Positions 828-38,476 of a DNA stretch of 64,000 nt are shown here, piece by piece (the first letter of the stretch is position 1; each line of letters starts with the position of its first letter). Origin of the DNA: Pseudomonadota bacterium (GTDB lineage: Bacteria > Pseudomonadota > Alphaproteobacteria > Sphingomonadales > CAKZYD01); contig JBMOOS010000015.1 of NCBI GenBank assembly GCA_049324415.1, positions 12,491-76,490 of the forward strand. The letters are read 5' to 3'. The notes below the pieces were generated by a model. The model was not told the DNA's origin. It saw only the letters and a program-made list of their open reading frames with translations, and made no database searches. The translations under genes and the position numbers were made by a program.

Positions 828-1184
828 ATGAAAATTACCCAAGCTTTCAGCTTTGAAGCAGCGCATCGGCTTCCCAACGTGCCGACGACCCACCGTTGCC
901 ATGGCATGCACGGGCATTCCTACCGCGTTGAACTGACGCTCGATGGACCCGTCGATGCCAGAACCGGCTTCGTCGTCGATTTTTTCGACGTGGAAAAGGC
1001 CTTCGCCCCCTTATTGGCGCAGCTCGACCATAAGTGCCTCAACGATGTCGCGGAGCTTGATAACCCTACTGCCGAGCTTATCGCCCTGTGGATTTGGCGC
1101 CGCGCCAAGCCGGCCTTGCCGCAGCTTGCAGCGGTCAAGGTCTATGAAACCGCCGACTGCTGGGCGGACTATGATGGCAGCTAG
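828..1184 (+). CDS. queD: 6-carboxy-5,6,7,8-tetrahydropterin synthase (QueD/PTPS family)
   Basis: MKITQAFSFEAAHRLPNVP..HRCHGMHGHSY fits the QueD/PTPS pattern. ATG 828 is preferred over the in-frame TTG 816, with GGGAAAGG upstream. Stop TAG at 1182-1184. Confidence 0.85.
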   Translation: MKITQAFSFEAAHRLPNVPTTHRCHGMHGHSYRVELTLDGPVDARTGFVVDFFDVEKAFAPLLAQLDHKCLNDVAELDNPTAELIALWIWRRAKPALPQLAAVKVYETADCWADYDGS

Positions 1185-1370
1185 TGGTCCGCCCCAAACG
1201 GATAAATCCATCCGTTTGGGAAAAGTGGACCACTTAAGTTATTGAATCTGTGGTGCGATTCCGCCAATTCATTTCCGAATTGTCGGGCCGAGCCACGCGC
1301 AAATCCAATATATTGTGGTGAAAATCAAACATGATGAATGGGGTCCCAAGCGTTTGATTTTCGCCACTAG
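1181..1370 (+). repeat. extended (190-bp) variant of the CTAGTGGT...ACCACTAG double-hairpin intergenic element
   Basis: The first ~80 nt match the 121-nt copies (hairpin A, linker TAAGTTATTGAATCT, GTGGTGCGATT). The interior of module B is replaced by two other hairpins (GCCAATTC/GAATTGTC and GTGGTGAAAATCAAAC/GTTTGATTTTCGCCAC). It ends in CCACTAG. Confidence 0.85.
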
Positions 1371-2299
1371 TCAAACAGGCTGGAGACCGAGCTTTCATCG
1401 GCGATGCGGTGGATCGCCTCGCCAAACAGCGGCGCGATGGTGAGCTGGCGGATTTTTTCTGAAACCCGCACCGCTTCGGTGGCCATGATGGAATCGGTGG
1501 TGGCGAGCGAGGTCAATTGCGAGGCGCCGACCCGGGCGACCGCGCCGCCCGACAAAACCCCATGGGTGACATAGGCGGAGACGTCCCTGGCCCCCTTGTT
1601 CATCAAGGCGTTGGCGGCGTTGCACAAGGTGCCGGCGGAATCGACGATGTCATCGACCAGGATGCAGCTATGGCCCTCGACCTCGCCGATGACGTTCATC
1701 ACTTCCGATTCGCCGGCCAGCTCGCGCCGCTTGTCGATGATGGCGAGCGGCACCCCCAAGCGCTTGGCGATGGCCCGCGCCCGCACCACGCCGCCGACAT
1801 CGGGCGAGACAATCATCAGATTGGCAAGGTCATAGCGTTCCTTGATGTCGCGCACGGTGACCGGCGCGGCATAGAGATTGTCCGTCGGGATATCGAAAAA
1901 GCCCTGGATCTGCCCGGCGTGCAAATCCATGGTCAGCACCCGGTTGGCCCCCGCGGTGGTGATGAGATTGGCCACCAGCTTGGCCGAGATGGGGGTGCGC
2001 GGGCCGGGCTTGCGGTCCTGCCGGGCATAGCCGAAATAGGGGATGACGGCGGTGATTCGCTTGGCCGAGGCGCGGCGCAGCGCATCGATGCAAACCAGCA
2101 GCTCCATCACATTGTCATTGGCCGGATGCGAGGTGGACTGGACCAGAAAAACGTCCTCGCCGCGCACATTCTCGTGGATCTCGACAAACACCTCGCCGTC
2201 GGAGAAGCGCCGCAGCGAGGCTTTCGTCAGCGGCAGGTTGAGATAGGCGGCAATCGCTTGCGCCAGCGGGGGATTGGAATTGCCCGCGACCAGTTTCAT
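1367..2299 (-). CDS. prs: ribose-phosphate pyrophosphokinase
   Basis: [20 protein letters not shown] start, [11 protein letters not shown], and the PRPP loop [15 protein letters not shown] 2299 was chosen; the 23 upstream codons of the track ORF look non-coding. Confidence 0.95.
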
Positions 2300-11018: not shown

Positions 11019-11139
11019 CTAGTGGTCCGCCCCAAACGGATAAATCCATCCGCTTGGGAAAAGTGGACCACTAAGTTAGTGAATCTGTGATGCGATTTCT
11101 CCAACAGATGGGAACCATCTGCTGGAATCGCAGCACTAG
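11019..11139 (+). repeat. 121-nt CTAGTGGT...(C)ACTAG double-hairpin intergenic element, copy 2
   Basis: Collinear with the copies at 22898 and 36930, with no indels and about 10 mismatches by hand alignment. Lies between divergent rpsF and fabD. Confidence 0.9.
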
Positions 11140-11152
11140 GAGATTTGTCGGC

Positions 11153-33776: not shown

Positions 33777-35196
33777 GAGCATCGCCCCGCTCACCCTCGA
33801 TGAGGAAAGCATGCGGCGGCTGGGCTATGGGGTGGTCGACGCCCTGGTCCGCCACTTCGCCACCTTGAAAGACCGCTCCATCGTCGCGCAAGTCCCCCTC
33901 GCCACGCTCAAGGCCTATTTCGCCCAGCCTTTTACCGAGGATGGCCGCGATCCCATGAGCGTGTGGGAGGAGGTGCGGACCCACGTCATCCCCGGGGTCA
34001 TGCGCACTGGCCATCCCCGCTTTTTCGGCTATATCCCGACGCCGTCCAATTTCGTGTCGGCCATGGCCGATGCGCTGATCGCCGGCCTCAACGTCTTTGC
34101 CGGCGTCGCCCAGGCCAACGAGGCGGCCAGCCTCATCGAAGTGGAAACGGTGCGCTGGCTCGCCCGCGAAGTGGGTCTGCCGGACGGAGCGGGGGGCATG
34201 GTCCATGCCGGCGGCTCGCTCGCCAACCTTGCCGGGCTGGCGGTGGCGCGGGAGGTGCATCTTGGCGGACCGGATCCGCGCGCCGTCGTCTATATGGGCG
34301 AGGAGACCCATAGCTGCATTGCGCGGGCGCTCCAGGTGCTGGGCTTTACTAAGGCCCGGATCCGCCTCATCGACAGCGATCCTCATTTTCGCATCGATGC
34401 CGCCAAGCTTGCCCACGCCATCGCCGCCGACAAGGCTGCGGGCCTCAACCCCGCGATCATCGCCGCCTCCGCCGGCACCACCAATGTCGGCGCCATAGAC
34501 CCCCTGGACAGGCTTGCGGATTTGGCTGGCGCCCATGGCCTGTGGCTCCATGTGGACGGCGCCTATGGCGGGGCGGCGGCGCTGACCGAGGAAGGCAAGG
34601 CGAAGCTTGCCGGCATCGCCCGGGCGGACAGTCTCGTCATCGATGGCCATAAATGGCTGTTCCAGCCGATCGAATGCTCGCTTCTCCTGGTGCGCCAGCG
34701 CGATTGGCTCGCCGCCGCCTTCCGCCGCGTGCCCGCCTATATGCAGGACAGCGATTCAGAGGACCCCGACCTTCCCAATTACCGCGATTTGGGGCTGCAG
34801 ACCTCGCGCGCCCTGCGGGCCTTCAAATTATGGCTGTCGCTCAAGGTTTTCGGGCTGGCCGCCTTCCGCGGGGCCATCGCCCAGGGTTTCGAGCTCGCCC
34901 GCTTCACCGCCGCCGAAGTGGCGCGCCGCCCCCATTGGCGCTTGATGGCGCCAGCCGATTTCGGCATCGCCGTCTTCCGCTATGAAAAGCCTGGTCTTAA
35001 CGCTGCGGGAAACGACGCCCTCAATCAGGCGATCACCCTTGCGCTTTTGAAAAGCGGCTATGCCCTGGTCAGCACCACGGAATTACTGGGGCGCAGGGTG
35101 ATTCGCCTGGCGCCCATCCACCCGGCGGCGACGCGGGAGGATATCATCGCCACCCTCGACCGGCTGGAGGCCTTCGCCGCCGCCCACCAAGGCTAA
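33769..35196 (+). CDS. pyridoxal-dependent (group II) amino-acid decarboxylase
   Basis: HPRFFGYIP, GGSLANL, and the PLP-lysine motif DGHKWLFQP. ATG overlaps the ppdK end by 8 nt. Confidence 0.85.
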   Translation: MTESIAPLTLDEESMRRLGYGVVDALVRHFATLKDRSIVAQVPLATLKAYFAQPFTEDGRDPMSVWEEVRTHVIPGVMRTGHPRFFGYIPTPSNFVSAMADALIAGLNVFAGVAQANEAASLIEVETVRWLAREVGLPDGAGGMVHAGGSLANLAGLAVAREVHLGGPDPRAVVYMGEETHSCIARALQVLGFTKARIRLIDSDPHFRIDAAKLAHAIAADKAAGLNPAIIAASAGTTNVGAIDPLDRLADLAGAHGLWLHVDGAYGGAAALTEEGKAKLAGIARADSLVIDGHKWLFQPIECSLLLVRQRDWLAAAFRRVPAYMQDSDSEDPDLPNYRDLGLQTSRALRAFKLWLSLKVFGLAAFRGAIAQGFELARFTAAEVARRPHWRLMAPADFGIAVFRYEKPGLNAAGNDALNQAITLALLKSGYALVSTTELLGRRVIRLAPIHPAATREDIIATLDRLEAFAAAHQG

Positions 35197-36929: not shown

Positions 36930-37050
36930 CCAGTGGTCCGCCCCAAACGGATAAATCCCTCCGTTTGGGAGAAGTGGACCACTAAGTTATTGAATCTGTG
37001 GTGCGATTTCTCCAACAGATGGGAACCATCCGTTGGAATCGCACCACTAG
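36930..37050 (+). repeat. 121-nt double-hairpin intergenic element, copy 4 (left terminus CCAG instead of CTAG)
   Basis: Collinear with copy 3, about 9 mismatches and no indels. Lies between divergent ygfZ and pyrC. Confidence 0.9.
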
Positions 37051-37132
37051 GAGATAGGCGGGATAAGAAACAAAAACAAGCCTTGAAAAGCGCTTTGGTC
37101 TGGCGCGCGCACCCCCTATAAGGGCAAAACAT

Positions 37133-38476
37133 ATGGCCGAGACATTCGATCTCATCATCAAGGGCGCGACCTGCGTGTCGCACGCCGGCAGCGGCATCGC
37201 CGATGTGGGGGTGCGCTCAGGTCAAACGGCGGCGCTCGGCGATCTCTCCCATGCGGCGGCGGCGGCGACCATCGACGCCAAGGGGCTCCATCTGATCCCC
37301 GGGGTCATCGACACCCAGGTCCATTTTCGCGAGCCGGGCAACGAGCATAAGGAGGATTTGCACAGCGGCTCGCGGGCGGCGGTCCTGGGCGGCGTCACCG
37401 CGGTGTTCGAAATGCCCAACACCAAGCCGGCGACCACCACCGCCGAGGCGCTTGCCGACAAACTGGCGCGCGCCCGTGGCCGCATGTGGTGCGATCACGC
37501 CTTTTATGTCGGGGCCACCGCTGAGAATATCGAGGAGCTGGCGCGCCTCGAGGCCGTGCCCGGCTGCTGCGGGGTGAAGATCTTCATGGGCGCTTCGACC
37601 GGCGACTTGCTGGTCGCCGACGACGCCAGCCTCGAAGCGGCGTTGCGCAACGGCCGGCGCCGGGTCGCCATCCACGCCGAAGACAACGCCCGGCTGGAGG
37701 CGCGCAAGGCCATCGCCCAGTCGGGCGATGTCGCCGATCACCCGCGCTGGCGCGACGACGAGACCGCCCTGCTGGCGACCCAGCGCGCCATCGCCGCCGC
37801 CCGCCGCGCCCGGCGGCGGGTGCACATTCTCCACGTCACGACGCCTCAAGAATTGGCCTTTTTAAGCCAGCACAAGGATATCGCGACGGTCGAGGTGACG
37901 CCGCAGCACCTCACCCTTGGCGCGCCGGACTGCTATCAAAGACTGGGCACACGGGCGCAGATGAACCCGCCGATCCGCAGCAACGCCCATCGCGACGGCC
38001 TGTGGCGCTGGCTGCGCCAGGGGGTGGTCGATGTCATCGGTTCCGACCATGCGCCGCACACCCTTGAAGAAAAGGCGAAGGCCTATCCGGCAAGCCCCGC
38101 TGGCATGCCCGGGGTGCAGACCTTGCTGCCCTTGCTCCTCGACCACGCGGCGCAGGGCCGCCTCAGCCTTGAGCACCTCGTGGACTTGACCAGCCACGGC
38201 GCGCATCGGGTATTTGGCCTGCGCGGCAAGGGGCGGCTCGCGCTCGGCTATGACGCGGACTATAGCCTCGTTGACTTGAAGCGCCGCTGGACGGTGGAGA
38301 AGGACTGGCTTGCCAGCAAATGCGGCTGGAGCCCCTTTGAAGGAATGCCGCTGCAGGGTAAGCCCGTCGGCACGATCATTCGCGGCGCCATGGTGATGTG
38401 GGAAGGGGAGCTCGCGCCAGCCCCTGAAGGCGCGCCGATCCGCTTCCAGGAAACACTGACGGGCGATGCGCGCTAA
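37133..38476 (+). CDS. pyrC: dihydroorotase (amidohydrolase superfamily)
   Basis: IPGVIDTQVHFREPG and VIGSDHAPH motifs. 447 aa. Confidence 0.88.
   Translation: MAETFDLIIKGATCVSHAGSGIADVGVRSGQTAALGDLSHAAAAATIDAKGLHLIPGVIDTQVHFREPGNEHKEDLHSGSRAAVLGGVTAVFEMPNTKPATTTAEALADKLARARGRMWCDHAFYVGATAENIEELARLEAVPGCCGVKIFMGASTGDLLVADDASLEAALRNGRRRVAIHAEDNARLEARKAIAQSGDVADHPRWRDDETALLATQRAIAAARRARRRVHILHVTTPQELAFLSQHKDIATVEVTPQHLTLGAPDCYQRLGTRAQMNPPIRSNAHRDGLWRWLRQGVVDVIGSDHAPHTLEEKAKAYPASPAGMPGVQTLLPLLLDHAAQGRLSLEHLVDLTSHGAHRVFGLRGKGRLALGYDADYSLVDLKRRWTVEKDWLASKCGWSPFEGMPLQGKPVGTIIRGAMVMWEGELAPAPEGAPIRFQETLTGDAR

Follow-up and report, generated by a model that had tools for sequence, protein, structure and literature searches.

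A probable CTAG-targeting transposon copy fills the gap between the stop codons of queD and prs

How can two convergent genes be separated by a repeat element and by nothing else, with the ends of that element lying in the stop codons of both? We addressed this question for queD and prs in a 64,000-nt stretch (hereafter the window) of an alphaproteobacterial genome (2.86 Mb, 64% G+C, 42 contigs, 99%-complete assembly). The first gene, queD (6-carboxytetrahydropterin synthase; 828-1184, plus strand), is an ORF starting at the ATG at 828 and carrying PF01242, and the second, prs (ribose-phosphate pyrophosphokinase; 1367-2299, minus strand), is an ORF matching the Pfam families Pribosyltran_N/Pribosyl_synth. 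CTAG is found at both limits of the gap between them (1181-1184 and 1367-1370), which gives a gap element of 190 nt (1181-1370). The end of queD reads ...GGC AGC TAG TGGTCC... (1175-1190), with the stop TAG at 1182-1184, and the prs side reads TTCGCCACTAGTCAAAC (1360-1376), the stop TAG of prs being the complement of 1367-1369 on the minus strand. A preliminary description of this DNA had placed both stops inside the terminal CTAGs and had counted no non-element nucleotide between the genes. Sequence and ORFs bear out these coordinates, and all 186 bases between the two stops could be assigned to two repeat families. We propose that this stretch is probably a non-autonomous transposon (MITE) whose mobility depends on an IS630/IS870-type DDE transposase supplied in trans.

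Neither protein is altered by this arrangement. QueD ends in ...CWADYDGS, its closest homologues sharing the same C-terminus (...CWAEYDG[S/A]), and the Prs C-terminus (...SSVSSLFD) is conserved, being identical in four family relatives and in most of 80 other Alphaproteobacteria. As both C-termini match the ends of their homologues, both stops stand at their natural positions, with neither truncation nor extension.

The element belongs to a set of about 123 repeat loci genome-wide, four of them in the window; the repeat is a main cause of assembly breaks, so that these copy counts are lower bounds. Contigs C5, C7, C14, C19, C20 and C30 start or stop within MITE copies, and N-runs break other copies (C5:47657-47946, C22:27481-27659 and C32:17181). 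Seventy-seven copies are complete, nearly all of them with CTAG at both ends, and the modal length is 121-122 nt. Copies measure 56-238 nt, are 90-100% identical and hold no ORF, i.e. the family is short, non-coding and multi-copy. The canonical unit is composed of CTAG, a hairpin A, a 15-16-nt linker, a hairpin B (GTGGTGCGATT...AATCGCACCAC) and CTAG. Modules A and B also occur as solo units with CTAG on both sides (56 nt for A), and there are tandem dimers in which a single CTAG is common to both units; all four dimers lie on one contig (C30:7-244, 126958-127196, 139749-139985 and 241134-241371). Besides the queD-prs copy, the window carries, on the plus strand, two canonical 121-nt copies bounded by CTAG (A, linker and B at 11019-11139; 22898-23018) and a third canonical copy whose left CTAG has decayed to CCAG (36930-37050). 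At two places in the window (11138-11152 and 37048-37055), the right end CACTAG and a flanking GAG together read TAGGAG just upstream of the start of the next gene. An 18-nt palindrome, CTAGGGTCCGGACCCTAG, was also observed in six exact copies plus variants, often directly beside MITE copies (e.g. C5:137195-137212, C32:26734-26751, C17:42739-42756 and C34:10-27); it may mark a hot spot for targeting, derive from module A in minimal form or be what an excision left behind. The MITE family had no match in 40 relatives, and an 18-mer diagnostic of module A gave only chance matches, none of them as a MITE, in about 185,000 species genomes. The family would appear to be a lineage-specific, recently expanded selfish element.

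The queD-prs copy departs from the canonical unit in its right part. From left to right on the plus strand, it begins with the module A hairpin (GTGGTCC...GGACCAC; 1184-1233), which equals the family consensus and folds into a long stem on both strands, followed by the linker TTAAGTTATTGAATCT (1234-1249), as in the canonical 121-122-nt element, and by GTGGTGCGATT (1250-1260), the left terminus of module B, delimited by alignment with a solo copy of a second family at C12:35906-36028. At this joint (1250-1260), the sequence changes from the canonical element to the second family, which has GTGGTTCGATT as its own terminus. The remainder comprises hairpin C (1250-1298), i.e. the left half of the second MITE family, the internal spacer of that family (GCAAATCCAATATATT, 16 nt; 1299-1314) and hairpin D (GTGGTGAAAATCAAAC...GTTTGATTTTCGCCAC; 1315-1367), the arms of which agree at 12-13 of 18 bases with the terminal repeats of full-length relatives from the IS630 family. 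The spacer is also present in the C12 copy and is therefore no relic of an old intergenic spacer. Overall, the second-family part (1250-1367) shares 97.5% identity with the solo C12 copy (3 differences in about 120 nt), which is itself CTAG-bounded; a decayed copy of this family lies at C21:167086.

According to these alignments, the queD-prs copy is a recombinant of two MITE families, joined inside their common terminus (GTGGTGCGATT in one, GTGGTTCGATT in the other). The preliminary description had seen module B replaced by two other hairpins; these hairpins are real, but they are not local and represent an independent CTAG-bounded MITE family. Of the two origins it had offered, a modular family agrees with a two-family recombinant, and nested insertion was rejected since the copy has neither a TA nor a CTAG junction inside it and lacks the remainder of module B. 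The hybrid form is the sole instance in the genome, so that it may not move as one unit, and further chimeric copies (C36:3359 and C30:220003) indicate that modules do get exchanged.

PF13358 (the IS630-family DDE_3 domain) has a single match in the genome, a fragment cut off by the edge of a contig (C11:1-431) and carrying an internal TAG in frame, and no intact transposase gene was found in the 99%-complete assembly. The ORF of this fragment ends in ...GATTCGATCCAC directly followed by TAG, the stop being made with the flanking CTAG; the same CTAG is also the stop of a convergent 126-codon gene (C11:428-808). Relatives of the fragment in other Alphaproteobacteria (about 80, of about 1140 bp) all have TGGAT(A/C)AAA after a left CTAG and ATCCA before a right CTAG, within unrelated flanks. 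The MITE termini share with the IS630-family ends a GTGG...CCAC placed beside TA. Modules B, C and D match the IS ends at 12-13 of 18 bases, and module A matches them weakly (9-10 of 18).

IS870 is cited in PMC13630536 as requiring a CTAG target, which completes the stop of its own ORF, and insertion of IS630-family elements duplicates TA, as observed for ISY100 in vitro (PMC2170065). In their CTAG target, IS870 of Agrobacterium vitis and IS630 of Shigella sonnei, from the CTAG-targeting branch of IS630/Tc1/mariner, resemble the MITE; TA is the dinucleotide duplicated in that family, and the last element base and the target together make a TAG stop, a logic with which the end of the transposase ORF in the C11 fragment and its relatives agrees exactly. 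Unlike them, the MITE carries no transposase gene and measures 121-190 nt against about 1.1 kb, and its ends share only 50-72% identity with the nearest IS ends found. By this model the element would transpose by excision and insertion into the TA of a CTAG, with duplication, we infer, of TA rather than of CTAG. As the element begins with G and ends with C, CTAG would be restored on each side, and a TAG stop using the target TA would be rebuilt on both strands. At the locus studied here, the left CTAG (1181-1184) would consist of the C of the target, a first copy of the duplicated TA and the G with which the element begins, the queD stop being target TA plus that G, and the right CTAG (1367-1370) of the last element base C, the second TA copy and the target G.

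The main rival to this origin, a MITE of the IS5 group making a 4-bp duplication of CTAG/YTAR, would leave the same footprint, since CTAG...CTAG flanks fit a 4-bp duplication as well as a TA duplication and the empty site would still be one CTAG. Such elements exist: MITEPsy1 of Pseudomonas syringae, an IS5-derived MITE of 100 nt, inserts at CTAG, as here, or at YTAA with a 4-nt duplication (PMC3189936), and PF01609 remnants are present in our genome. MITEPsy1 differs from the present family, however, in duplicating 4 nt and in having IS5-type ends, whereas the ends described here (GTGG...CCAC next to TA) match those of the IS630 family. Furthermore, the IS630-type fragment and its roughly 80 relatives carry the same CTAG flanks, and the degenerate PF01609 remnant at C39:108104-108490 lacks MITE-like CTAG-bounded ends, for which reason an IS5-type parent was rejected; we consider this origin very unlikely. 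Searches with Rfam covariance models returned only chance matches far below gathering scores.

A close parallel for an IS630-type MITE is RUP of pneumococcus, a short, hairpin-forming, high-copy, non-coding MITE that is attributed to the IS630-Spn1 transposase acting in trans and is enriched between convergent genes (PMC3049150). Our family is like it in all of these structural features and in its presumed trans-mobilisation by an IS630-family enzyme. It has no sequence relation to RUP, whose host belongs to another phylum, and the strict CTAG bounds and the two-module build (A plus B) are specific to the MITE described here.

With a codon-usage model, 2517 genes were called; flush counts are approximate, as they depend on this caller. 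TAG accounts for 20% of the stops, and 152 of them read CTAG. By these approximate counts, the terminal CTAG is the stop of a called gene in 26 of the 77 complete copies (on one side in 23, on both sides in 3), compared with 111 of the 504 CTAGs outside elements and coding sequence (odds ratio 1.8, p=0.03). For sites flush on both sides, the comparison is 3/77 versus 2/504 (odds ratio 10, p=0.018). Flush copies as a whole are in modest excess. The preliminary description had allowed that the arrangement would be a coincidence if no other copy of the genome sat flush against stop codons; this does not hold, given these 26 copies, among which two besides the queD-prs copy are flush between convergent genes.

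CTAG is a rare word here, with 1145 sites genome-wide (0.12 of expectation), 204 of which lie within element copies. This rarity means that abutment on stops mostly reflects target choice. Moreover, an in-frame terminal TAG implies that the CTAG of the empty site already held the stop, so that a flush copy is one that landed on a natural stop; C32_16622, for instance, ends in ...DGSWKVVG both in this genome and in that of a family relative (G002). The distribution of copies over convergent, tandem and divergent gaps (17/36/17) is roughly like that of free CTAGs (74/281/113). This pattern is what a CTAG-seeking element tolerated wherever no gene is broken would give. A comparable coincidence is known from the pneumococcal BOX repeat, which supplies the stop of 36 genes; there too, repeat ends coincide with the stops of well-known genes with no evidence of truncation (PMC3049150). 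In BOX, however, the stop is internal to the repeat and follows no known target logic, whereas in the MITE the stop is the target, rebuilt by duplication.

The three copies flush on both sides are the hybrid at queD/prs, a solo A unit between a heme-oxygenase-like gene and an acyl-CoA ligase gene (C21:164551-164606) and a canonical copy with a DUF502 gene on one side and recG on the other (C16:51345-51466). Each of the six genes beside these copies is supported by Pfam, and two of the three copies involve a gene that is absent from family relatives or kept there as a different version elsewhere. The site that such an insertion would need is a 4-nt overlap of two convergent stops, i.e. a gene arrangement and not a mobile element, which we propose as the pre-insertion state. 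Convergent overlaps of this kind (CTAA, TTAA, CTAG, TTAG) are a known and common prokaryotic gene overlap (PMC2174442), and the preliminary description had pointed to two CTAA pairs in the window (35193-35196 and 38473-38476), both confirmed by the gene calls. Genome-wide, 42 of 363 convergent pairs have 4-nt overlapping stops (CTAA 10, TTAA 13, TTAG 17, CTAG 2); other short convergent distances are rare in this genome. One of the two free CTAG overlaps is the IS630 fragment end and the other involves a weak 61-codon ORF, so that nearly all genuine CTAG overlaps are occupied by IS630-type elements.

An empty counterpart was found for one double-flush copy. The DUF502 gene and recG have 4-nt overlapping stops in four family-level genomes (CTAG in G004, CTAA in G002, TTAG in G003 and G006), the last recG codon being aligned with that of the genome studied here. 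In G004, this is an orthologous empty site, with one CTAG common to both stops. For the heme-oxygenase-like/acyl-CoA ligase copy, an empty site was sought among 40 relatives, in which the heme-oxygenase-like gene has no orthologue.

For queD-prs itself, neither an empty site nor the gene pair was found in 80 alphaproteobacterial prs loci, six family-level genomes and the contigs carrying the closest QueD (79-81% identical). Among four metagenomes containing the species (X1-X4), the junction was present in X1, X2 and X3, and no contig lacking the element was seen for this junction or for the loci of three other copies. The preliminary description had proposed a precise insertion into an overlapping stop: the mechanism is real elsewhere, at DUF502/recG, but no pre-insertion state of queD-prs was seen. 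The comparison of the junction in relatives that it had suggested returned no queD-prs pair, only prs genes with an independent stop and an ordinary spacer.

The adjacency of queD and prs is confined to this lineage. In the relatives, prs, rplY, pth and ychF are co-directional, the spacer after prs (8-170 nt overall) leading directly to rplY over 118-166 nt in G001 and G003 and, in G002, a different gene following prs after 8 nt with rplY beyond; the independent prs stop is TAG, TAA or TGA. In the present genome, the rplY block lies on another contig (C32:10545-14016), with its conserved leader and behind a 108-codon gene, and the prs-rplY-pth-ychF linkage is broken exactly at the prs stop (window position 1367). 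The TAA of the 108-codon gene occupies the place expected for the prs stop; in G002 and G004 this gene is convergent with orthologues of C32_8510/9410. As for queD, it shares 76-81% identity with Hyphomicrobiales-type QueD, against 41-50% with the QueD of family relatives, and its closest match anywhere is at 81%; on this similarity, queD is a xenolog. The ancestral queD slot, between the orthologues of C17_38255 and C17_35775, is now taken by a 199-codon secreted-protein gene (C17:37638-38237), and genes for ACR3, ArsC and a methyltransferase lie just to the left of the queD of the window. Since relatives have rplY after prs and queD elsewhere, and since this queD is xenologous, the queD-prs junction is a lineage-specific breakpoint. 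A stop shared by queD and prs would have had to form after the rearrangement.

Two histories of the junction have to be weighed. In the first, queD and prs, once brought together, would have ended tail to tail on one shared CTAG, as we infer for this locus. One element, or two in tandem, would then have landed in this CTAG and pushed the genes 186 nt apart with both proteins unchanged; a landing of two is plausible because tandem dimers with one CTAG exist. The hybrid would have arisen afterwards by recombination or slippage within the common terminus GTGGTGCGATT; had two elements landed, slippage between the direct repeats GTGGTGCGATT may have removed hairpin B. The second history is a merger in which the stops never overlapped: an A-B element sitting on the C-TAG of queD and a second-family element sitting on the C-TAG of prs would later have been joined, a deletion or recombination between the similar termini GTGGTGCGATT and GTGGTTCGATT removing the rest of B and anything between. 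This event may itself have brought queD beside prs.

The structure of the locus speaks for such a merger in several respects: the unique hybrid is joined exactly in the common terminus, the element sits exactly at the synteny break, where the prs-rplY-pth-ychF linkage ends at the prs stop with the xenologous queD beside ars genes, and the prs of relatives has an independent stop and a normal spacer. One-sided flush copies are also common (23/77), so that both precursors are plausible. Against it, C-TAG stops occur in about 6% of genes and elements occupy about 17% of those sites, i.e. about 0.04 pairs are expected even before the deletion step, and the homology available is only 11-13 nt. Next to rplY (C32:13547-13689) there is no reciprocal hybrid, which would prove an inversion between two MITEs. 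In addition, chimeric copies arise elsewhere without rearrangement (C36:3359 and C30:220003), and neither of the two other double-flush copies is a hybrid: both are simple insertions, and for one the orthologous site is an empty CTAG. The base rates, about 0.04 expected pairs by merger against two other confirmed double-flush insertions, favour the shared-CTAG history. We therefore lean, with only a little better than even confidence, towards a shared CTAG formed after the rearrangement into which one or two elements then landed, a single insertion into an overlapping queD-prs stop being likely, and regard the merger as possible at best. That the hybrid is the scar of recombination between two stop-flush MITE copies, and that this very event created the queD-prs junction, is a slightly more doubtful proposition. 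If it were true, stop-flush MITEs would be portable seamless joints fusing the 3' ends of unrelated genes with no spacer left, and would here have joined a horizontally acquired queD/ars block to the core gene prs.

The element might also be thought to be kept as a bidirectional terminator or insulator between convergent genes, its position being selected and not a by-product of target choice. Three hairpins, all strong, form on folding of either strand (-83 and -78.5 kcal/mol, z -7.4 and -7.0); from both sides the first stem starts within the stop codon, and each flanking hairpin is followed by a moderately U-rich stretch. These tails are only moderately U-rich, however, a simple terminator scan called neither flanking hairpin (A or D), and the spread of copies over gap types (17/36/17, against 74/281/113 for free CTAGs) displays no clear 3'-end bias. 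A family lacking from 40 relatives, and whose diagnostic 18-mer occurs as a MITE in none of about 185,000 species genomes, is therefore no conserved regulatory device, and selection for termination or insulation appears extremely improbable. The hairpins may incidentally stabilise or end both transcripts; their effect on mRNA 3' ends would more probably be neutral, or that of a 3'-end stabiliser, than that of a purpose-built terminator.

The arrangement between queD and prs is thus an ordinary result of where an IS630-type transposon inserts. No new principle is involved, as the target behaviour of IS870/IS630, RUP-like MITEs and stop-supplying repeats have already been described (PMC3049150); what is new is a clean lineage-specific family of about 120 copies with one documented orthologous empty site. 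Convergent genes with zero spacer and intervening hairpins call for caution in annotation, as they are possibly recent insertions and not regulatory devices. More broadly, the target choice of a transposon shapes where it can survive. In this genome of 64% G+C, the number of CTAGs is an eighth of that expected, and stops account for about a fifth of those in non-coding DNA, so that an element that rebuilds CTAG can sit on gene ends, and even a stop shared by two genes can host it at no cost to either protein.
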